This document shows, in pieces, positions 5,612 through 46,773 of a DNA stretch of 60,341 nt. The DNA lies in IMG/VR virus record IMGVR_UViG_3300045391_002463. One strand, given 5' to 3'. The stretch is from a virus. The position numbers and the translations under genes are program-made. Each line of letters starts with the position of its first letter. Positions within the stretch are counted from its first letter, which is position 1. The notes under the pieces are model-generated. The model was given only the letters and a program-made list of their open reading frames with translations. It was not told the DNA's origin and did not search any database.

Positions 5612-6888
5612 GCCTGTCGGAGGAGAATGCGGCGTCCGTGATGCGCAGCCAGACCGTTCGCCTTTACCCCACAGCGGCTCAGGCCGAACGGTTGAGCCAG
5701 TGGGCCGGCACGGTGCGGTTCGTCTACAATTTGGCGCTTGAGCAACGTAAGACGTTCTGGCGGCCGGGCAGGCATTTCAACTACGCCACTCAAAGCCGGG
5801 AAATCACAGAGCTGCGCGCCACTGTCGAATGGATCGCGGACGTGCCCCGCAGTCCGCTTAGCTACGCGCTGAGCGATCTCGACCAGGCTTATGCTAATTG
5901 GTGGGCCGGCCGCGCAGGCGCGCCGTCCTATAGAACTCGTAGGGAAAACGACTCATTCAGGCTGCAGGGCCGCGATTGCAGCTTGCGTCGTACGTCTCGG
6001 CGGTCTGGCCAACTGCGCATTCCAAAGCTGGGAGACATTCGCTTCAGGTGGACTGGGGCGACGCCAGCGACATGGGTGAATTGCACGATCTATCGCCGTG
6101 GGGGCGCATGGTTCGCGGCGGGGCCGCGCACAGTTGAGGCCAGGGCGCCCGCGTGCTCGCCGCAGATGGTCGGGGTTGACCGCGGCATACGAGCCTTTGC
6201 CGCTCTATCCTCTGGCGAGCTGGTTGTAGGGCCGAACCCCGGCCGGCGAGCAGCCAAAACGCTAGCGCGCGCGCAACGGAATTTGTCCCGCAAGCAGAAG
6301 GGGTCGCGCAACCGCGACAAGCAACGACGGCGTGTGGCGAAGCTGCATATGCGGCTGGCCGACGCCCGGAAGGACTTTCTCCACCGGATCAGCACGGCCA
6401 TCGCCCAGAACCACGGCACGGTCGTTCTTGAGGACTTGAAGGTGAAGAACATGACCAGGCGCGCGGTCGGTAAGGGGCGCGCCGCCAAATCTGGCCTCAA
6501 CCGATCCATTCTCGACCAGGGATGGGGCACCTTCCGCCAAATGCTGGCCTACAAGCTAGCGGAGCGCGGCGCCCGTCTGATCCTAGTTGCCGCCAACGAC
6601 ACGAGCCGCACCTGTGCTGCCTGTGGCGTGGTGGACGGGGACAGCCGAAAGGCCGAGCGGTTCAAGTGCACCGTCTGCGGCCATGAGGCCGACGCGGACA
6701 CGAATGCCGCGATCAATATTCTACGCCGGGGACGCGCCTCGGTTCTGCCTGTGGAGGCTTCGGCATGCGAGCCGGCCCATGAAGCAGGAACCAGTCGGAC
6801 GGCATCTCGCCTGTTCGTCAGCTCGGAAACGAGTGGATGCGGAGCTTCTATAGGGAAGGTCGCTTTCCCTGGGGGTGTTTCCAGATGA
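5608..6888 (+). CDS. tnpB: TnpB RNA-guided nuclease (IS200/IS605 OrfB family), catalytic triad present
   Basis: Start at ATG 5608 inside track ORF 5515..6888. It has VRLYPT, RuvC-I GVDRGIRAF, RuvC-II VVLEDLKVKNM, a zinc finger (CAACG...CTVCG) and RuvC-III ADADTNAAINIL. No tnpA is nearby. Confidence 0.9.
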   Translation: MSLSEENAASVMRSQTVRLYPTAAQAERLSQWAGTVRFVYNLALEQRKTFWRPGRHFNYATQSREITELRATVEWIADVPRSPLSYALSDLDQAYANWWAGRAGAPSYRTRRENDSFRLQGRDCSLRRTSRRSGQLRIPKLGDIRFRWTGATPATWVNCTIYRRGGAWFAAGPRTVEARAPACSPQMVGVDRGIRAFAALSSGELVVGPNPGRRAAKTLARAQRNLSRKQKGSRNRDKQRRRVAKLHMRLADARKDFLHRISTAIAQNHGTVVLEDLKVKNMTRRAVGKGRAAKSGLNRSILDQGWGTFRQMLAYKLAERGARLILVAANDTSRTCAACGVVDGDSRKAERFKCTVCGHEADADTNAAINILRRGRASVLPVEASACEPAHEAGTSRTASRLFVSSETSGCGASIGKVAFPGGVSR

Positions 6889-7304
6889 GCGCCGGACTTC
6901 GCGTATTGGTCTGCGGCGGTCGCGACTACGACAACTGGACGGCGTTCGCAGCCGAGATGGACATGCACGCCAAGCGCATGAACATCGGCCTAGTCGTGTC
7001 AGGCGGAGCGCGCGGAGCCGACACGATGGCCAAAGATTGGGCCCTCTCGCGCGGCATCCCCGTCGCTATCTTTCCTGCCAACTGGACGAAGCACGGCAAA
7101 GCCGCCGGCCCGATCCGAAATCAGTCCATGATCGACTTCATGCGTCCGGATGTGGTGATCGCCTTCGCTGGCGGTCGCGGGACGGCTGACATGATCCAAC
7201 GGGCCATCAACGCCGACGTGACGGTGATCCAGTGCATGACTATCCGGTTGACGCCCACAGATACCAATGGTAGTGTTTCCTTCATTGGGGCAGTCGTCCC
7301 TTAG
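6885..7304 (+). CDS. DUF2493 / SLOG-family (YspA-like) protein with an IS-derived C-terminal extension
   Basis: Start at ATG 6885 (ATGA with the tnpB stop). VLVCGGRDY ... VVSGGARGADTMA ... AFAGGRGTADM is the DUF2493 pattern. The last 23 codons lie inside the IS that starts at 7235. Confidence 0.75.
   Translation: MSAGLRVLVCGGRDYDNWTAFAAEMDMHAKRMNIGLVVSGGARGADTMAKDWALSRGIPVAIFPANWTKHGKAAGPIRNQSMIDFMRPDVVIAFAGGRGTADMIQRAINADVTVIQCMTIRLTPTDTNGSVSFIGAVVP
7227..7234. repeat. Target-site duplication ATCCAGTG, left copy
   Basis: The identical 8-mer is found at 8884-8891, immediately outside the inverted repeats. Confidence 0.85.
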
Positions 7305-8891: not shown

Positions 8892-9146
8892 AACGCCCCG
8901 CGCCTGCTCACCGAGCGCGCCGCTGCCGAATACCTGTCCATCCCGGTCGCCGGGGTGCGCAGGATAGCGGCTGGCCGCGTGGTGCTCGATGGGCGGGTGC
9001 GCTGGGATCGGCTGGCGCTGGACGAGTGGCTTGACGCCATGCGCGGGCGTGCCCCAACGTCGGCCGCCAACCAGAACCAGACCAAGGCCGATGCCGCGCT
9101 CGCCGAGTGGCTTGCAGACCAGACGAATGCTGCCCGGAGTTCATAA
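8889..9146 (+). CDS. xis: excisionase / AlpA-type HTH protein
   Basis: 85 aa with a GTG start. LLTERAAAEYLSIPVAGVRRIAAG is an HTH, and the gene lies directly upstream of and overlapping int. Confidence 0.65.
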   Translation: MNAPRLLTERAAAEYLSIPVAGVRRIAAGRVVLDGRVRWDRLALDEWLDAMRGRAPTSAANQNQTKADAALAEWLADQTNAARSS

Positions 9147-10188
9147 GGTCCGGGTGAGGCTGGCCACGGGGCGCGCCGAGTATTGGTACGCCTGGCGGGG
9201 CGGTCCGCGCATCCTCGCGTGCAAGGCCAAGACCGCTGAGGATCTGGCGCGGATGGTGGATGCTGCGGCGCCCGCAGCCATCGCGCAGTTCAAGGTGCTG
9301 GTACAGCCGCCTTCGGCCGATGCCTTCGTTTCCGGCCTGATCACGAAGTTCCTGGACAGCCCAGCGTATTTGGGGCTCGGCGCCACGCGGCGATCCGACC
9401 TATCCCGTTATCTGGACGCGGCGCGGACCGGTGTAGGCACAATGCCCTTAGAGGCCCTGGCGTCGGCAGGGACGCGCAAGGTCCTGCTCGACTGGCGGGA
9501 CAAGTTCAAGGCCACGCCATGCACGGCCGACAACCGTCTCGGCGCCCTCGCGCAAGTGCTCGCCTGGGCGAAGAAGGACGGACTGATCACGGTCAACCCG
9601 CTGGAGGAATGGCCCCGCATCTACAAGGTCGACCGCGCCGACATCATCTGGACGAAGCCCGACCTGATCCGGTTGCTCACCGGGGCCGATGCCGATTTCC
9701 GGAGAGCTGTCCTGCTGGCGGCCTTCACGGGCCTTCGCCTCGGTGATCTGGTCAAGGTGACCTGGGCCAACGTTGGCAAGGACGCGATCACGCTGGCCAC
9801 ATCCAAGAGCAACGGCAAGCGGGTGGTCGTGATCCCGATCACGCCAAAGACCAGGGCCATCCTCAAGCAGATCGGGCGCAAGGATGTCGGGACGGTGCTC
9901 ACCCACTCGCGCGGCAAGCCCTGGACCGGCTGGGGCCTGCAGACGGCCATGCAGCGGGCGAAGAACCGGCCGGGCCAAGACATCGAGGGCCTGCGCTTCC
10001 ATGACCTGCGGGGCACAGCCGCCACCCACTTCATCCGGGCCGGTCTGCCCATGGCCGATGTCGCGACCATAATGGGATGGGCGCCGGCTCAGGTGGAGGC
10101 GATTGCCCGGCGCTACGTCACGTCGGAAGCGGTTGCAGCGGGCATGTTGGAGCGGCTAAGGAAGAACAAAGGCGGGGCGCGTTTGTAA
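9127..10188 (+). CDS. int: tyrosine integrase
   Basis: Start at ATG 9127 inside track ORF 8989..10188. It has LLAAFTGLRLGDL (Arg), HDLRGTAATH (HxxR) and a C-terminal RRYV (Tyr). attP lies immediately downstream. Confidence 0.9.
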   Translation: MLPGVHKVRVRLATGRAEYWYAWRGGPRILACKAKTAEDLARMVDAAAPAAIAQFKVLVQPPSADAFVSGLITKFLDSPAYLGLGATRRSDLSRYLDAARTGVGTMPLEALASAGTRKVLLDWRDKFKATPCTADNRLGALAQVLAWAKKDGLITVNPLEEWPRIYKVDRADIIWTKPDLIRLLTGADADFRRAVLLAAFTGLRLGDLVKVTWANVGKDAITLATSKSNGKRVVVIPITPKTRAILKQIGRKDVGTVLTHSRGKPWTGWGLQTAMQRAKNRPGQDIEGLRFHDLRGTAATHFIRAGLPMADVATIMGWAPAQVEAIARRYVTSEAVAAGMLERLRKNKGGARL

Positions 10189-10383
10189 AATGGGTCAGAC
10201 CATTTGTAAAACGCCAGCCGCCACACTGGAAAAGCCCAAGCTTTTCAACTGGTCCCGTAGCTCAGCCGGATAGAGCAGGGCTTTCCTAAAGCGACGGTTA
10301 TTCAATGAAATCAAAGGCTGTGCTGTAAAAGATCGGCGGATGTTCACGCTTTGCCCTTTACGGGCAGGCGAGAATTGTAAAAC
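10182..10383 (+). other. attP region: tRNA-derived core flanked by four direct TGTAAAA arm-type repeats
   Basis: TTTGTAAAA at 10182-10190, TTTGTAAAAC at 10203-10212, CTGTAAAAG at 10323-10331 and TTGTAAAAC at 10375-10383. Two repeats lie on each side of the core at 10251-10292. The segment is AT-rich and sits next to int. Confidence 0.7.
10251..10292 (+). other. 5' half of a tRNA-Arg(CCT) gene (attP core), not a complete tRNA
   Basis: GGTCCCG TA GCTC AGCCGGATA GAGC A GGGCT TTCCTAA AGC gives the acceptor 5' strand, D arm, anticodon stem 5' strand and a loop with CCT. Similarity to a tRNA ends at 10292 and no T arm follows. Confidence 0.75.
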
Positions 10384-40794: not shown

Positions 40795-41469
40795 ATGGAA
40801 GAGAGCAGCGTCTACGTGATCGAACGCGAGGATGGTCGGATCAAAATCGGCCATGCGGGCGACGCGCGGAAGCGACGAGAACGCCTACAGACATCCTCTG
40901 CTGAACGCCTAGCGCTTCGCTTCACGATGCGGTTTGATCGTCCCGGCGCAATGGCTGTCGAAGCCGCAGCTCATGCCAAGCTTCATTCATTCCGCCTAGC
41001 AGGGGAATGGTTCGCCGTTACGTCAGAAGTGGCCGTGGCCACCGTTCGCGAAGTGTCGAGCGGGCTTGGGTTGCAGGAGCGTCCAGAGCCCGAGTTGCCC
41101 GTCCGCCCCGTTGGCCGCCCACCATCCTCGGACCGCAAGGAAGTCGTCACCCTACGGCTGCGCCAGTCCACGCTCGACGCCTACAAGGCCAGGGGTGACG
41201 ACTGGCGAGCGCGAATGGAGGCCGCGATAGAGAAGGCGCTTGAGCCGGCCAAGCCCGACCCTGAAAACCCCGAATGGACCACGATCGATTTTGCCAAGGC
41301 TCAGGGTCCGGAAAGCCTACCGGCGCCGGTCCGAGCCGCATTCCCGAAGACGCGGGCCGAACCCACAAGAGCGACGATCCCGCCGATGGCAGCGCTGTCG
41401 AGCGTGCAGCTCGGGCCGTCCTCGACCGCGCCCGGCTCCCGCCTCAAGCAGCCGAAGGCCAAGCGCTGA
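40795..41469 (+). CDS. GIY-YIG/T5orf172-type domain fused to a BrnA-like ribbon-helix-helix segment
   Basis: Start at ATG 40795 with GGAGG upstream. VYVIEREDGRIKIGHAGD...GEWFAV is T5orf172-like and KEVVTLRLRQSTLDAYKARGDDWRARMEAAIEKAL is BrnA-like. It lies inside track ORF 40195..41469. Confidence 0.6.
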   Translation: MEESSVYVIEREDGRIKIGHAGDARKRRERLQTSSAERLALRFTMRFDRPGAMAVEAAAHAKLHSFRLAGEWFAVTSEVAVATVREVSSGLGLQERPEPELPVRPVGRPPSSDRKEVVTLRLRQSTLDAYKARGDDWRARMEAAIEKALEPAKPDPENPEWTTIDFAKAQGPESLPAPVRAAFPKTRAEPTRATIPPMAALSSVQLGPSSTAPGSRLKQPKAKR

Positions 41470-41625: not shown

Positions 41626-41690
41626 GGACGCCGGCGGCAGGACTCGAACCCGCGACCCAAGGCTCTACCGGCTGAGCTACGCCAGCGTCC
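41626..41690 (-). ncRNA. tRNA-like element lacking an anticodon arm
   Basis: The minus strand reads GGAC GCTGGCG TA GCTC AGCCGGTA GAGC CTTGGGTC GCGGG TTCGAGT CCTGC CGCCGGC GTCC. This gives acceptor, D and T arms with an 8-nt linker in place of the anticodon arm. The stem is extended by 4 bp and no CCA is encoded. Confidence 0.55.
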
Positions 41691-41785
41691 TATGCACGCA
41701 TCCGCCGCGTGCTGGCCTACTAGGGCGGCTCCAGCGGAGGGCTACCCGACCCCGCCTTCATCGCCTCCCGTTCGCTCGGGATCTT

Positions 41786-41820
41786 GAAATGGAAACGCCC
41801 CGGCGGTGAGGCTCGGGGCG
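41786..41820 (-). terminator. rho-independent terminator after the 322-aa gene
   Basis: 7-bp stem CGCCCCG / CGGGGCG with an 11-nt loop, followed on the minus strand by TTTCCATTTC. Confidence 0.55.
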
Positions 41821-41880: not shown

Positions 41881-42849
41881 CTAGTGGATCCCGAGCACGT
41901 CTGCGGCATCGTCGGCAGCCCTGACCAGAGCCCGGGAGTTGAGCGCCCGGTCTGATCCGCCCTTGCTGATCGAGCTGATGGTCCTCCCCTCCCCGGCCAC
42001 CAGCCGCAAGGTCGTCAGGCCGCGGCCGTTGCGGCTTCCGGCTTGGACGCGAGTCTCGATGGCCTGAATGGTGATGCGGGCGCGCAGGCGTTTCTCCTGC
42101 CAGCCCTCGCCTTCACCGGATCCGGCGGCGCTCCCCATCTGAGATTTGAGGCCTTCGCGGACGGTCTCGAAGAGCGCGCGATAGCGGCACAGGGCGTCAT
42201 GCTGGTTCTTGTCGAGGCCGCCGGCGCTGAACAGGCTCTCTAGGCCGTCCCGCCGGGTCAGGCGCATCGAGCCGTCCCCTTCGATCTCGCCGCCGCGGCC
42301 CTTCTCCAGCGTCTCCAGCATGATCAGGTGCGCTCGCAAGGCCTCCTGCTCCTCGTTGTCGTTCAGGCCTCGCTCGATCTCGTGCAGCTCGTCCCAGATG
42401 GCCTGGCGTTCGTCCTTGGTCAGCGTCGGGAGTTGCAGCTTGCGGTGCAGCTTGTCGACGCGCTTCACCCGGGCTGGCGTGAGCCCGCGCTCCGCATCCG
42501 GGAGTTGGATCCGCTTCGGCGCCGGGCGCTCCGCCTCCTCGGCCCCGGTAAATAGCACGGCCATCAACTCGTCTTCCCAGGCCTCTTCGGTGCTGGCCAT
42601 GGCCTCGCGGCGGTCTTGGTCGGTGATGCCCCAACCGGCCTCGGCGGCGAGGATCAGGATCGCCAATTCCCGGCTGGCGAGTCCTGCCCTGGCCCGCGCT
42701 TCGATGCGGAGAACCTTCTGCTCCCGAATGGGCCCGAGCCGATCCACCGGGCACGGCAACACCATTGGGACCTCGCCGATCAGATGGATCGTGGGCCGGC
42801 GCGCGGCAGACGGCAACACAGCTTCCAGGTCTGCGATGGTCGTGGTCAT
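41881..42849 (-). CDS. hypothetical protein, possible late-gene regulator
   Basis: 322-aa track ORF. It is the last gene before a terminator and the packaging genes, and its C-terminal region is HTH-like. Confidence 0.4.
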   Translation of the reverse strand: MTTTIADLEAVLPSAARRPTIHLIGEVPMVLPCPVDRLGPIREQKVLRIEARARAGLASRELAILILAAEAGWGITDQDRREAMASTEEAWEDELMAVLFTGAEEAERPAPKRIQLPDAERGLTPARVKRVDKLHRKLQLPTLTKDERQAIWDELHEIERGLNDNEEQEALRAHLIMLETLEKGRGGEIEGDGSMRLTRRDGLESLFSAGGLDKNQHDALCRYRALFETVREGLKSQMGSAAGSGEGEGWQEKRLRARITIQAIETRVQAGSRNGRGLTTLRLVAGEGRTISSISKGGSDRALNSRALVRAADDAADVLGIH

Positions 42850-43865
42850 GCGACGCTCCTGGGCATGGCTTCGGTTTGGACGAGGATGCGGATGCCGCGC
42901 TGCTCGAGGGCCGGCACATCGGCGCGCAGCTTGCCGGCGACGAAGCTGTTTGGCGCCGTGATGGTTCGGCCGTCAGGCGCTTCGGCATAAGCGCAGGTGT
43001 CGAGGAACGAGACCGCCCAGCCCTCGCTCTTGTGGTCGACGACGTAGGCGCGGATCGCGGCGTTCGGGAACTTGGGGATCGCGGCCAGGGACGCTGCGCC
43101 GGCAGTCGCGGCCTCTCCGCCCGTGTACGATCCCTCGAGTAGCCGGCGCCAGGACTTGGGCTGGCAGACGAAATCTAGGTCGGCCCGCCAGTGTCGGTCA
43201 TTCTCGCCGCGGCAGTGCGAGCTTCGCTCCACTTCGGCGAGTGCGCTTCTCCAAGCAGCCAGACCGCCGGCAGCCAGCCGTGATCTGATCGCTTTCCGAC
43301 GCCCGTCGTCTAGGAGCTTGGCCTTGGGTAGGCCGCAGCGTTCGGCCAACGCGTTCCATTCATCGAAGGCTGTGCGGACGTCGTCCGGCTTGCCGGCGAC
43401 AAAGGATGCGTCAGCATCCTCCTCTTTGTTCTGCCTTCTGCTCTCTGGCTTCTGAGTGGTAGGGGGCCTTGAAGGGGGCCTTGAAGGCGCGGGATTTTCT
43501 TCTGCGTTTTCAGACACTTCTCTGAGCGCGGTTTCCTTGGCTTTTCGCCCAGCAACCGACCTCTTGTGGTCGTCGGTCATGCGCTTTGAGTAGATGACGC
43601 CTCCCCTCGTGCGGCGGAACACGCCAGCGTCGCCGAGCTCGACAAGCAGAGCTTGGACCTCTTCGACGTTGGTTCCGACGAGACGGGCGAGCGCGGCATC
43701 ACTCACAGGTTGACCGCCTACCAGAAGATGGCCGTAAGGAGATGCCTCGTGCATGGCGCACAGCATCTCAATCCAAAGCCCGCGGGCCGACAGCGACACC
43801 ACCCGAAGGGCTTGGTCGCCGCGCCAGTCGCGGGGATAGAACTTCATCCAGGGTTGGCTGCTCAC
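42846..43865 (-). CDS. DUF1376 (YdaU-like) replication-associated protein
   Basis: 339 aa. The N-terminal WMKFYPRDWRGDQALRVVSLSARGLWIEML is the DUF1376 pattern. It lies next to dnaB. Confidence 0.65.
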   Translation of the reverse strand: MSSQPWMKFYPRDWRGDQALRVVSLSARGLWIEMLCAMHEASPYGHLLVGGQPVSDAALARLVGTNVEEVQALLVELGDAGVFRRTRGGVIYSKRMTDDHKRSVAGRKAKETALREVSENAEENPAPSRPPSRPPTTQKPESRRQNKEEDADASFVAGKPDDVRTAFDEWNALAERCGLPKAKLLDDGRRKAIRSRLAAGGLAAWRSALAEVERSSHCRGENDRHWRADLDFVCQPKSWRRLLEGSYTGGEAATAGAASLAAIPKFPNAAIRAYVVDHKSEGWAVSFLDTCAYAEAPDGRTITAPNSFVAGKLRADVPALEQRGIRILVQTEAMPRSVA

Positions 43866-46342
43866 TAGCGCCCTCCCCGCGGTTCGCTGAAGTCGAGCGC
43901 ACGGCCCTCGAAGCGCCCCTCGCGGGCGAGGTTGCCGAACTTGGTCAGGTCGGAGTTGAAGGCCAGCTTGACGGTGCCGATGGGGCCGTGGCGCTGCTTG
44001 CCGATGATCACCTCGGCGAGGCCTTGGACCTTGCTCATGTCATCGCACCAGGTCAGGTGCTCGGCCGTGCCTTCGCGGGGCTCTGATCGGGAGAGGTAGT
44101 ATTCCTCCCGGTAGACGAACCACACCATGTCGGCGTCCTGCTCGATCGAGCCGGATTCGCGCAGGTCCGAGAGCATCGGGCGCTTATCGTTGCGCGTCTC
44201 GACCTGGCGGGAGAGCTGCGACAGGGCGATCACCGGAACGTTCAGTTCCTTGGCCAGCGCCTTCAGGCCCATGGTGATCGCCGACACTTCCTGCACCCGG
44301 CCATCGCTGGAGTTCTGGCGGCCGGCCGTGAGGAGCTGCAGGTAATCGACAACGATCAGGCTCAGGCCGCGGCGGCGCTTCAGACGGCGGGCCCGGGCGG
44401 CCAGCTTGCCAAGCGACAGGCCGCCCGTGGCGTCGATGTGGAGCGGCGCGCGCTCGATCTCAGCGGCGGCGTCGCGCAGGCGTCCGAACTCCGAGGCGTT
44501 GATCTCGCCCTTGCGGATGCGGTCACCGGAGACGCCGGCGACGTCGGCCAGGATGCGGAGGCCCAGCTGCTCGGCCGACATTTCCAGGGAATAGAAGGCG
44601 GCCGGATCGCCGGACTTGGCGACGTGAAAGGCGATGTTGGCCGCCAGGGCGCTGTTGTGCGTCACGATGTAGTCGTCGGTGATGTAGAGGGACGACGGAT
44701 GCGTGACCCGGATGCACTGCGTTGGCTCCTCACCATCCGACGCGATCGAGACGACGGTCGGGGCCCGGAAGCGCATCTCGGCTTCGCATCGGCGCTGCTT
44801 GCGCTTCAGGCTCAGCAACGAGGCGCGGTCTGGATGGCTCATGTTCAGGACGTAGCTGTCCAGGCCGTCGCGCTTCTCGCCCTTGTGGGTGAAGGTCGGC
44901 TTCTTGATCGAGACAGCGCAGACGCCGCCGACGGAACGGACGAGCTCTACTATGTCATCGGCCAATTGCCGGCTGGAGGTGGCGTATCGGACTGCGCCGA
45001 ACGTCTCCACCCAGCCGTCGGTATCCAGGAGCCCACGAAGAAGCTCCATGCGGCTCTCGCGGCTGGCGCTCTTGTATGCCGCAGGGATGAACTTCTCGGG
45101 AGAGCCCTTTCCCCAGAGCCCGTAATGTTGGAGCGCGCCGGTCAGGCCGTTCGCGACGCTCTGATTAAGGCGATAGTCGTAATCGCCTCCGGCCGACACA
45201 ACGCACTCGGCGCCGACCGCCTTCTGTACGCGGTAGAGAGTGGCAGCATCGGCCGTGCTGAACTTCAGCGTGCCCCCCGTCATGCCTCCATTGCCGATCA
45301 GGGCGCCGAGAAGCCAGGGGTCGATCAGAAGCCCGTCGTCCGAGCCGAAGTGGCCCGATGCGAGGGGCAGGCTAACCCGACGCTGGAAGCGCTCCTTCTC
45401 CAGCATCTTGGCCAGGCAATCGGTCTGCACGACCTTCCGGCCAGAAAGCTTGCAGCTGTCGATGGCCCACAAATGCTCGGCGCAGGCTCGCGTGGACCGC
45501 CCATCGCTGAGCGTCACTTTGAACACCTCGCGCCGCCCTTTCGGGAAGATCCCCGCCACGCGCGACGCCGCACCGTCAACGGACGCCAGTTCATCGCCAA
45601 GGCGCAAGGCGCCCATTGCCTTCCAAGACCCGTCCCGCATCAACACCCGAGCGTCCAAGGGTTGGGCTTTCCCCATGGACGGCCGGCCGGCGAGGATCAC
45701 GAGGTCGGACGGGTGAAGGCCGCCGATCAGCTGATCTAGGTCGATCAGGCCGGTGGACAGCCCCGACAGGCCGCCGTCTCGGGAATACGCCTCGGCGGCG
45801 ATGCCGATGGATGCGGCGACCACCTCGGAGAACTCGCGGAAGCCCTGCCCGCTTTCGCCCTGCTCGGCGAGTGTGTAGAGCGCCTCCTCCGCCGCGGCGA
45901 TCTGCTCAGAGGCTGGCGTGGCCCCGTCGTTCACCCCAGCGGCGACGGCCTGCCCGATCTCGAGCAATGCGCGGCGCAGGGCCAGGTCATAGACCTGCTC
46001 GGCGTACTCGGCGGCATTGAAGCCCGGCGGCGCCTTGTCGACCAGATCGGCGAGATAGGAGACACCGCCGAGTTCCTGATAGGCGCCGTCGGCTTCGAAG
46101 CGGCTGTGCAGGGTCACTGGCTCGGCCAGCTTGCCCTTGCCGATCAACTCGACCATCGCGGCCCACAGGCGGCCATGGAAGGGCTCGTGGAAGTGCTCCG
46201 CGCGCAAGCGGTCGGGCACGCGCTCGTAGGCCTGGTTTTCGTACAGCACCGCGCCCAACAGGGCCTGCTCGGCCGCGATGTTGGCGGGAGCGGCGTTCAC
46301 GGGCGTGGACGCAGATTGGTCCAAGGCGGCGATGGCGTTCAA
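43865..46342 (-). CDS. dnaB: replicative DNA helicase DnaB interrupted by an intein
   Basis: TTG start at 46342 with GGAGGA upstream (TTGA overlap). AEQALLGAVL, Walker A GRPSMGK | intein | SALAANIA, and the C-terminal SGSIEQDADMV motif. It lies inside track ORF 43865..46501. Confidence 0.9.
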   Translation of the reverse strand: MNAIAALDQSASTPVNAAPANIAAEQALLGAVLYENQAYERVPDRLRAEHFHEPFHGRLWAAMVELIGKGKLAEPVTLHSRFEADGAYQELGGVSYLADLVDKAPPGFNAAEYAEQVYDLALRRALLEIGQAVAAGVNDGATPASEQIAAAEEALYTLAEQGESGQGFREFSEVVAASIGIAAEAYSRDGGLSGLSTGLIDLDQLIGGLHPSDLVILAGRPSMGKAQPLDARVLMRDGSWKAMGALRLGDELASVDGAASRVAGIFPKGRREVFKVTLSDGRSTRACAEHLWAIDSCKLSGRKVVQTDCLAKMLEKERFQRRVSLPLASGHFGSDDGLLIDPWLLGALIGNGGMTGGTLKFSTADAATLYRVQKAVGAECVVSAGGDYDYRLNQSVANGLTGALQHYGLWGKGSPEKFIPAAYKSASRESRMELLRGLLDTDGWVETFGAVRYATSSRQLADDIVELVRSVGGVCAVSIKKPTFTHKGEKRDGLDSYVLNMSHPDRASLLSLKRKQRRCEAEMRFRAPTVVSIASDGEEPTQCIRVTHPSSLYITDDYIVTHNSALAANIAFHVAKSGDPAAFYSLEMSAEQLGLRILADVAGVSGDRIRKGEINASEFGRLRDAAAEIERAPLHIDATGGLSLGKLAARARRLKRRRGLSLIVVDYLQLLTAGRQNSSDGRVQEVSAITMGLKALAKELNVPVIALSQLSRQVETRNDKRPMLSDLRESGSIEQDADMVWFVYREEYYLSRSEPREGTAEHLTWCDDMSKVQGLAEVIIGKQRHGPIGTVKLAFNSDLTKFGNLAREGRFEGRALDFSEPRGGR
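44654..45667 (-). other. 338-aa intein with a LAGLIDADG homing-endonuclease domain, class-3-like (WCT) signature
   Basis: It begins AQPLDARVLM right after GRPSMGK and ends YIVTHN before Ser+1. It has EHLW (Trp after the block B His), QCIRV (Cys where block F Asp is usual) and THN. The LAGLIDADG motifs are LLGALIGNGG and LLRGLLDTDGW. Confidence 0.8.
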
Positions 46343-46773
46343 GCGCGATCCTCCGCGCGAGCGAGGGCGGCCATCCGCCCCGCATAGGCCCGGATGCCGT
46401 GGAGCACCGTCGTGTGGTCGCCGACGCCGACGATCCGGGCGATGGCGGGGAGCGAATAGCGCGGCCGGCCGTCGCTCAGCTTCACCTGACGCAGGCGCCA
46501 CATCGCCTCTTGTCGGGGCCAGGCGAAACAGCGCGAGCGGCGGTCGCAGCGCAACTCGATGACGGAGAGGCCATGGGACGCAGCGACCGCGGCCAGGATC
46601 AGGTCGTGGGCGGACTTCGCGGCGATATTGGCCTCGGCGATCCGCCGCTTTAGGGCGGCATTCTCTTCCGCGAGCGCCAAGGCGTCTCGCATCAGCCGAT
46701 TGGCGGCCAGGGTCTCGGTGACGAAGCGCTGTAGCGCCTCAGGGGTCGCGGTGGCGATGTCGGACGCGTCCAT
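46339..46773 (-). CDS. DnaA domain-IV-like DNA-binding protein
   Basis: 144 aa. WPRQEAMWRLRQV...SLPAIARIVGVGDHTTVLHGIR matches the DnaA C-terminal HTH. Confidence 0.65.
   Translation of the reverse strand: MDASDIATATPEALQRFVTETLAANRLMRDALALAEENAALKRRIAEANIAAKSAHDLILAAVAASHGLSVIELRCDRRSRCFAWPRQEAMWRLRQVKLSDGRPRYSLPAIARIVGVGDHTTVLHGIRAYAGRMAALARAEDRA

Follow-up and report, generated by a model that had tools for sequence, protein, structure and literature searches.

Several RNAs that stand outside translation have the shape of transfer RNA (tRNA). The eukaryotic mascRNA/MEN-beta module, made from MALAT1 by RNase P and RNase Z, is one of them. Plant mitochondrial t-elements and tRNA punctuation place tRNA-like folds between coding regions, where RNase P and RNase Z cut the polycistronic RNA. 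The tRNA-like domain of transfer-messenger RNA (tmRNA) is the top half of a tRNA without an anticodon and is processed by RNase P, and YrlA, which is present in some phages, includes a module that resembles tRNA in having D and T arms but lacks an anticodon. RNase P, the nucleases forming tRNA 3′ ends and the CCA-adding enzyme all recognise the acceptor/T minihelix and the elbow without the anticodon arm. Here we analyse an element of this shape in the virus record IMGVR_UViG_3300045391_002463 of IMG/VR. The whole stretch of 60,341 nucleotides (nt) is called the window; the element lies on its minus strand at 41629-41686 and is a derivative of a phage tRNA gene from which the anticodon arm has been lost.

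The element is closest to a canonical tRNA. Shared features are the acceptor stem of 7 base pairs (bp), U8/A9, a D arm with G18G19, a 5-nt variable loop with C48 and a UUCGA T arm, and the elements of its class occupy intergenic slots of phages that hold real tRNAs in related phages. Unlike a tRNA, it has 2-3 nt in place of the anticodon stem-loop, is not called by ARAGORN and, in the window copy, comes without CCA. The likeness to mascRNA lies in a tRNA-shaped module outside translation, the cleavage of which would set the 3′ end of an upstream RNA with a protective structure, in phages a hairpin or a GOLLD RNA. However, mascRNA keeps a shortened anticodon stem, is eukaryotic and shares no descent with the phage element, for which cleavage is predicted; the analogy is functional only. 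The t-elements, likened here by description, are organellar and usually mimic the acceptor/T arm alone. In contrast to the phage element, tmRNA has the G3:U70 alanine identity, pseudoknots and a tag reading frame and lacks a D stem, whereas YrlA differs in its circular permutation with respect to tRNA and in its Ro-binding helix.

A tRNA-like element without an anticodon arm

Comparison of the whole window with all 4227 Rfam families yields a single above-threshold match in the 60 kilobases (kb). The tRNA model RF00005 covers 41629-41686 on the minus strand from end to end (model positions 1-71) with 41.3 bits against a gathering score of 29 (E = 2.3e-5), and in this alignment 3 nt stand for 18 model positions of the anticodon arm. 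Read on the minus strand from 41690 to 41626, the sequence is GGAC GCUGGCG UA GCUC AGCCGGUA GAGC CUUGGGUC GCGGG UUCGAGU CCUGC CGCCGGC G UCC, with the following parts.

41629-41686, minus strand: core tRNA-like element, 58 nt from acceptor position 1 to the discriminator G (Rfam RF00005 match)
41680-41686, minus strand: 5′ strand of the acceptor stem, GCUGGCG, with 7 of 7 pairs to CGCCGGC (41630-41636), including a U3-G70 wobble
41678-41679, minus strand: U8-A9, 5′ of the D arm
41662-41677, minus strand: D arm, GCUC-AGCCGGUA-GAGC, with A14, G15, G18 and G19 (sequence and model alignment)
41654-41661, minus strand: 8-nt linker CUUGGGUC in place of the anticodon arm (sequence and model alignment)
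41637-41653, minus strand: T arm, GCGGG-UUCGAGU-CCUGC, with one G-U pair (sequence and model alignment)
41629-41636, minus strand: 3′ strand of the acceptor stem, CGCCGGC, and discriminator G, followed by UCC; CCA is not encoded
41626-41690, minus strand: 4-bp extension of the acceptor, GGAC/GUCC, specific to the window and seen in the sequence; it stabilises the fold (z = -2.3)

The linker is best read as position 26, two extra nucleotides and an intact 5-nt variable loop, GGGUC, ending in C48. The nucleotides that hold the tertiary structure of a tRNA (U8, A14, G18G19, C48 and the T-loop UUCGA) are all found in the window copy, and the anticodon stem together with the 7-nt loop bearing the anticodon is missing. 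We conclude with high confidence that the element is a phage-borne tRNA-gene derivative in which the anticodon arm (positions 27-43) is swapped for 2-3 nt. The parts that are kept build the tRNA elbow and the acceptor/T minihelix and, to judge from the sequence, the element is unable to decode. The original prediction, made from the letters of the window alone, had described acceptor, D and T arms without an anticodon arm, one U-G pair in the acceptor, the GGAC/GUCC extension and the lack of an encoded CCA, and all of these are found in the sequence. Of the searches it had proposed, the Rfam comparison gave the tRNA match reported above; ARAGORN called neither a tRNA nor a tmRNA anywhere in the window.

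Other known RNAs were considered and rejected. The window has U3-G70 and not the G3:U70 of tmRNA, for which neither ARAGORN nor Rfam gave a match. The YrlA/Y-RNA-like family (RF02553) reached 13.4 bits against a threshold of 69, and mascRNA/menRNA (RF01684) 17.1 bits against a threshold of 42.5. GOLLD and ROOL RNAs had no Rfam match in the window. A tRNA fragment belonging to a phage attachment site (attP) was also rejected; the integrase lies 31 kb off, and both acceptor strands are present.

A chance resemblance in coding or otherwise random GC-rich sequence would be compatible with the long open reading frames (ORFs) that overlap the region on both strands, and with the fold energy of the 58-nt core, which is no better than that of shuffled sequences (z = -0.78). 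Those ORFs, however, have no Pfam matches, the Rfam match is full-length at an E-value that holds for the whole window, and dozens of homologous elements share the same architecture. Chance is effectively refuted.

Recurrence in phages and prophages

A pattern consisting of the D arm TAGCTCAGNNGGTAGAGC, a gap of 3-12 nt and the T-arm core GGTTCGARTCC, with the acceptor left out of the pattern, matches 31 viral contigs. All of these have a gap of 11 or 12 nt, which equals a linker of 8-9 nt, and at least 6 of the 7 acceptor pairs are formed in 27 of the 31. Bacterial genomes contain about 13 copies in prophages, where the mode of the gap is again 11-12. With one genome per bacterial species, gaps of 3-22 nt, a good acceptor and no masking, 12 sequences have gaps of 11-12 and the other lengths are represented by 0-2 each; the exception is a gap of 22, with four tRNA-like sequences in which the D-to-T spacing is shorter than in a normal tRNA. 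Hosts of the prophage copies include Lacticaseibacillus, Lactobacillus, Weissella, Streptococcus, Corynebacterium, Glutamicibacter, Microbacterium, Faecousia and Oleispira, and the surroundings are prophage at the loci checked. The class recurs in phages and prophages of Actinobacteria, Firmicutes, Bacteroidota and Proteobacteria. The window copy has what defines it, namely a 7-bp acceptor, a D arm, a linker of 8-9 nt ending in the variable loop and a T arm, all in phage DNA.

The alignment of 32 distinct sequences displays changes on both sides of a pair (compensatory changes) at 7 of 7 acceptor pairs and at 3 of 5 T-stem pairs. Acceptor cells are paired in 99.6% and the whole core structure in 98.3%, compared with about 40% when the 3′ partners are slid. 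The first base of the linker (position 26) covaries with position 44, and standard pairs are formed in 25 of the 32 sequences (CG 15, UA 5, AU 2, GC 1, GU 1, UG 1, other 7). The scar at the lost arm thus appears to be capped by a base pair and not loose. Neither the acceptor sequence nor the discriminator nor an encoded CCA is conserved within this set; the variation of acceptor and discriminator argues against a single aminoacylation identity. A conserved tRNA-Ala identity was rejected, because G3:U70 and A73-CCA are present in three members (L003, L022, L042; loci are numbered with an L throughout) but sister copies have A3:U70. The extended acceptor helix of the original prediction, 11 bp in the window, does not hold as a family trait, the extension columns being paired in 44.5% of cells against about 40% in slid controls across the 32 members; longer extensions are seen in L016 and L028. 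A covariance model of our own (R1) gives independent members 54-79 bits; the window sequence was in the training set, and its 75.5 bits are therefore not independent.

Related elements are found in deposited phage genomes. A 58-nt feature of Polaribacter phage Danklef_1 (MT732458), annotated as "tRNA-OTHER, Undet(NNN)", is a full member with 77 bits on R1. For the Microbacterium EA5 phages Librie and LilTerminator, one "tRNA-Undet(nnn)" has been reported without interpretation (PMC9583789, PMC12821330). In Librie (ON970570; L363:27037-27106) we find a 67-nt relative with an encoded CCA, in which an 11-nt stub, CCAUUGCGCGG, replaces the anticodon arm; the DNA polymerase I gene follows 46 nt downstream, a placement shared with L001 and L019. 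The similarity of the Danklef and Librie features to the window copy is limited to the tRNA core. Lactococcus phages of the P335 group (P335, bIL309, TP712, D2950 and others) carry an unannotated 61-nt relative (L274:2494-2554 in Lactococcus phage D2950; about 41947-42007 of AY766464 in TP712) with an altered D stem and the mini-hairpin ACCGUUCGGU in place of the anticodon arm; the lysin terminator lies on one side of it and the lysogeny module on the other, and the attP core of TP712 is about 70 nt away. In the full-text literature, with subscription journals outside the coverage, no description of a class of tRNA-like elements in phages lacking the anticodon arm was found. Relatives already bear the annotators' label "tRNA-OTHER/Undet(NNN)", and the class is uncharacterised.

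Intermediate forms exist. Many phage tRNA-like genes (L153-L272; viral contigs, among the matches listed) have miniaturised anticodon arms with stems of 3-4 bp and loops of 3-6 nt, and one abundant mini-arm family with the linker GCCACACTTCCGTGGAGGTC comes from a single large metagenome dataset. Counts of viral contigs at the intermediate gap lengths of 13-23 nt are lower bounds, to be read as "at least". Anticodon-arm loss therefore appears to lie at the extreme of a graded series.

A different arrangement was observed at L038, L062, L083, L093, L118 and about 45 other Bacteroidota loci (e.g. L093:7097-7140), where a D arm is followed by 14-20 nt, often starting with AACAG, and a T arm. The T stem is perfect, no acceptor stem is formed in the tRNA register, and Rfam covers positions 7-64 of the tRNA model only. 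These loci are often at the ends of tRNA arrays, and they look like a separate, unexplained elbow-containing element.

Derivation from tRNA genes and conservation

A full tRNA-Phe(GAA) of phage Javan565 is the homologue of the element in a Streptococcus porci prophage (L012, identical to L055), and the two have the 3′ acceptor strand and the upstream sequence in common; in Javan577 the same slot holds a rearranged copy with a 71-nt insertion. A second case is the actinobacterial L003 clade, for which 80 loci were collected via the capsid protein. Its slot lies behind a conserved hairpin, about 470 nt past the capsid gene. The 58-nt truncated form occupies this slot in 7 contigs. Elsewhere the slot holds a tRNA-Arg(CCT) with the acceptor and T arm of the truncated form, a tRNA for Met, Asn or Gln, an odd tRNA-Ala, or other truncations of 43 and 49 nt; a 68-nt form is also among the truncated forms in slots of the class. 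In about 65 of the 80 contigs the post-capsid hairpin is present without a tRNA-like insert, nothing being detectable at the search threshold. Full tRNAs in homologous slots mark phage tRNA genes as the source of the elements, which arise when the arm is lost, and the contents of related genomes indicate that the slots turn over.

Among the seven contigs with the 58-nt form, capsids are 76-100% identical, with synonymous differences (pS) up to 0.40 (synonymous divergence, dS, 0.58). The elements themselves differ at 2-7 of 58 nt; L280 and L301, for example, show 2 differences at a dS of 0.56. For the pairs that have diverged most, identity is about 73% over the 60 nt upstream of the element and 50-73% over the 40 nt downstream. 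The element is far better conserved than both its flanks and synonymous sites, which indicates purifying selection in this clade. The changes that do occur concern variable positions of the D loop, the linker, or both partners of a pair (C1:G72 to G1:C72), and the copies keep G18G19 and the T loop, with A73-CCA encoded in 6 of 7. Compensatory double changes are also present in the L002 clade, where C5:G68 has become A5:U68 in L037 and U6:A67 has become G6:C67 in L360. In our reading of these sequences, the class is kept by selection in at least some lineages.

Placement and a proposed role in RNA processing

At 25 of 30 loci the element and the gene upstream share a strand, and intergenic gaps go down to about 130 nt. 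The element precedes TerS/TerL in the window and in L012, L028, L031, L006 and L121, and in prophages of Lactobacillales it stands just after an ArpU/Alt-type late activator (L034, L051, L057, L012). Other placements are after the major capsid gene (L003 clade, L004), before DNA polymerase (L001, L019, Librie) and after helicase/primase. Among 128 neighbour genes around 33 elements no conserved protein partner was found, and only terminase recurs.

About 14 of the 32 members have a strong hairpin whose end lies 0-7 nt upstream of +1, and the mean fold z is -2.36 upstream and -0.79 downstream. An abutting hairpin leaves no room for a promoter, so that in most members the element would lie on a longer transcript that reads through the hairpin. 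In L012, a GOLLD RNA (RF02032, 263 bits; 6773-7161) ends 3 nt before the element (7165-7223), whereas in Javan565 the homologous upstream sequence is followed by a full tRNA-Phe and a tRNA-Trp. This suggests that processing of a tRNA, or of a tRNA-like element, makes the 3′ end of the GOLLD RNA. Two canonical tRNAs follow the element in L034. GOLLD and ROOL RNAs have been described near the tRNA islands of phages, with tRNAs sometimes covalently linked to them (PMC12286853).

In L276-L301, at about 420-470 nt past the capsid gene, a conserved hairpin of 15-16 bp (-31 to -38 kcal/mol) is followed by GC-ACCA. With this arrangement, a cut by RNase P would leave an mRNA 3′ end that resembles a minihelix with an ACCA tail. 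The hairpin with ACC(A/C) is present also in relatives of the L003 clade that have no tRNA at all.

Based on this dataset and by analogy with the systems described above, we hypothesize that the element is a tRNA-shaped processing module of the RNase P type, to which we assign a probability of roughly 40%. The element would be transcribed within a longer phage transcript and excised in the manner of a tRNA. A cut by RNase P at +1 would leave the upstream RNA (in one case a GOLLD RNA) with a protective hairpin at its end and would uncouple it from the downstream message, and a stable RNA of about 58-61 nt may be released as a by-product or second product. All of these cleavage steps are modelled on tRNA processing. 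With such a module, bacterial viruses would have their counterpart to MALAT1-mascRNA, plant mitochondrial t-elements and mitochondrial tRNA punctuation. We place less confidence in this mechanism for the window copy than for the class as a whole.

As the main functional alternative, the RNA of about 60 nt, once released, may act in trans as a tRNA mimic, binding a protein that recognises the elbow and acceptor. Two roles are conceivable for such a mimic, one as a decoy for, or inhibitor of, a defence nuclease or toxin that targets tRNAs, the other as a modulator of a host factor that binds tRNA. Either would fit the conservation of the helices, of the variable loop and of G18G19 and UUCGA in the elbow; loss of the arm would render the RNA inert in decoding and uncleavable by anticodon nucleases, and CCA is encoded in one clade. 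The elements sit beside highly expressed late genes (capsid, terminase) or at prophage ends together with accessory genes, and the varied tRNA identities found in one slot (Arg, Met, Asn, Gln) are consistent with an arms race. Cleavage of tRNAs is common among defence systems and is countered by phage tRNAs (PMC12445682, PMC12409363, PMC13096335), which makes a mimic plausible. On the other hand, no defence or anti-defence gene is consistently near among the 128 neighbour genes, a stoichiometric decoy would compete with the whole tRNA pool of the cell, and acceptor sequences that vary freely indicate no single acceptor-specific partner. The idea has no computed support, and we consider it unlikely.

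Genome context of the window

The window looks like a complete genome of a temperate phage of about 60 kb. Features around the element and the integrase are as follows.

8989-10185: integrase
10251-10292, plus strand: 5′ fragment resembling tRNA-Arg(CCT), beside the integrase
40810-41469, plus strand: convergent T5orf172/MUG113 (homing-endonuclease-like) and BrnA-antitoxin-like gene; the start is uncertain, and the gene is context and not part of the RNA
41694-41712, minus strand: small hairpin GCACGC-GGCGGAU-GCGUGC ending 7 nt before +1 (z = -0.2, no better than shuffles in the GC-rich flank)
41797-41812, minus strand: terminator-like hairpin with U-rich tail, after the ORF of 322 amino acids (1 found against 0.3 expected from shuffles)
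41881-42849, minus strand: ORF of 322 amino acids without homologues
42849-43865, minus strand: replication-initiator-like gene
43865-46501, minus strand: DnaB-type replicative helicase with an intein (Hint and LAGLIDADG, residues about 285-525)

The order on the minus strand is DnaB, the replication-initiator-like gene, the 322-amino-acid gene, the terminator-like hairpin, the element, TerS, TerL, portal and capsid, with the T5orf172-BrnA gene on the plus strand between the element and TerS. These surroundings agree with the original prediction, which had placed the element between a terminator and an opposite-strand gene, upstream of the packaging genes. For the T5orf172-BrnA gene, the search for relatives returned one weak match only and no close viral relatives; the 322-amino-acid gene has no homologue among 5.8 billion proteins, and no second contig could be reached through it. 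TerL is at most 45% identical to that of known phages, and the best matches are phages of Rhizobium, Erythrobacter and Paracoccus. The closest cultured relatives of the window phage infect Alphaproteobacteria. In a blastn search of 50,697 phage records, no close relatives of the 700-bp region or of the element were found, the element region yielding generic tRNA similarity plus the Danklef and P335-group elements only. A pattern specific for the acceptor and T arm of the window copy has 0 matches in viral contigs, and the core of the window type is matched once in metagenome contigs, by a copy cut off at a contig end.

The tRNA-Arg(CCT) fragment holds the 5′ strand of the acceptor, the D arm, the 5′ strand of the anticodon stem and the loop TTCCTAA, after which it diverges; a T arm is absent. 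It sits amid repeated TTGTAAAA motifs, and the region is probably the attP of the phage with its arm-type sites. A fragment from the 5′ part of a tRNA, and not from the 3′ part, is unusual for an attP.

These neighbours bear on the possibility that the element acts as DNA and has no RNA function, being a relic of an attachment site, a recombination hot spot or the target of the adjoining homing-endonuclease-like gene. The T5orf172-type gene adjoins the window element, tRNA slots in related phages swap cassettes, the relative in the P335 group lies close to the attP core of TP712, and a separate tRNA-Arg fragment marks the integrase/attP region of the window. However, that integrase is 31 kb from the element, both tRNA halves are present in the element whereas attP sites carry one part, and compensatory changes keep the pairing and the tertiary nucleotides, which points to selection on an RNA fold. 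A T5orf172 domain is found in 1 of the 128 genes around 33 elements, namely the window's own neighbour, and a link with T5orf172/GIY-YIG genes, as raised by the original prediction, does not generalise. An element acting as DNA appears very improbable.

Maintenance or decay

Several observations weigh against a processing role. The window copy lies about 110 nt behind a terminator-like hairpin, with a convergent gene next to it, and not between co-transcribed genes; the hairpin adjacent upstream is not significant, and leader and trailer pair over 4 bp across the RNase P site. Its TerS relatives at 50-70% identity (three viral and three assembly loci) have neither the element nor a tRNA upstream of TerS. 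Nearest-neighbour folding gives a rod of -26.6 kcal/mol for this copy, compared with -23.9 kcal/mol for the tRNA-like three-way junction. Within the class, U is found at -1 in just 11 of 32 members, and bacterial RNase P prefers U at this position. The search pattern fixed the D arm and the T loop, and intact loops in the set derived from it are therefore not independent evidence. Signs of decay are seen in L360 with mutated D and T loops, in the degenerate L361 and in L362, a slot without the element, and truncated forms of 43, 49 and 68 nt as well as degenerate copies occur in the same slots, as decay predicts. The insert is dispensable, since about 65 of 80 relatives in the L003 clade do without it.

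With regard to the rod, a minimum-energy structure other than the tRNA fold is common for real tRNAs too. In L003 and L150 the minimum-energy structure is the tRNA-like fold. Thermodynamic folding is uninformative as evidence for the window copy.

Part of these observations would be expected if the window copy, and perhaps much of the class, were decaying remnants, that is, phage tRNA genes that have lost the anticodon arm by deletion, are non-functional and have not yet been purged. Homologous slots of related phages hold full tRNAs; the other truncations, the 71-nt insertion of Javan577 and the degenerate L360 and L361 show further rearrangements in such slots; and the distribution is sporadic, with the element missing from the TerS relatives of the window phage and from most relatives of the L003 clade. 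The window copy has two wobble pairs, no CCA and a terminator-like hairpin in front, and a search pattern that picks intact loops favours young deletions. However, the linker has a sharp mode at 8-9 nt and not the spread expected of deletion end points, and its positions 26 and 44 covary. The 58-nt form of the L003 clade persists over a dS of about 0.5 at 3-12% divergence, far above both flanks in conservation, and three independent compensatory double substitutions separate orthologous truncated copies. Deletion pressure on phage genomes is, moreover, strong. Such decay is possible, though we consider it somewhat less likely than a processing role.

The original prediction had left the choice between a deletion remnant and a functional elbow module, and both have gained support, the former from full tRNAs in homologous slots and the latter from purifying selection with compensatory changes in the L003 clade. 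Individual copies, possibly including that of the window, may be on their way out.

Implications for phage biology

Phage tRNAs are now explained by codon usage or by the replacement of tRNAs destroyed by defence systems. A conserved tRNA shape that does not decode needs another explanation. If the element is a processing module, bacterial viruses would use tRNA punctuation to set the ends of mRNAs and the relative stability of transcript segments. GOLLD-type RNAs are known to be linked with tRNA islands, for reasons as yet unexplained (PMC12286853), and such a module would give a concrete route by which their mature 3′ end could arise. If the element is a mimic, it would represent a new kind of RNA-based counter-defence.

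As elements of this class are missed by ARAGORN and called "tRNA-Undet" by tRNAscan-SE, tRNA counts of phages are slightly wrong, which a dedicated covariance model would correct. Cultured carriers of relatives (Polaribacter phage Danklef, Lactococcus phages P335 and TP712, Microbacterium EA5 phages) make the question testable now, and the P335 group consists of well-studied dairy phages. In its widest form the proposal is a tentative one: phages of several phyla may maintain dedicated "mini-tRNAs" without an anticodon, either as RNase P end-forming modules for mRNAs and for ornate large RNAs such as GOLLD or as uncleavable mimics that blunt tRNA-targeting immunity.

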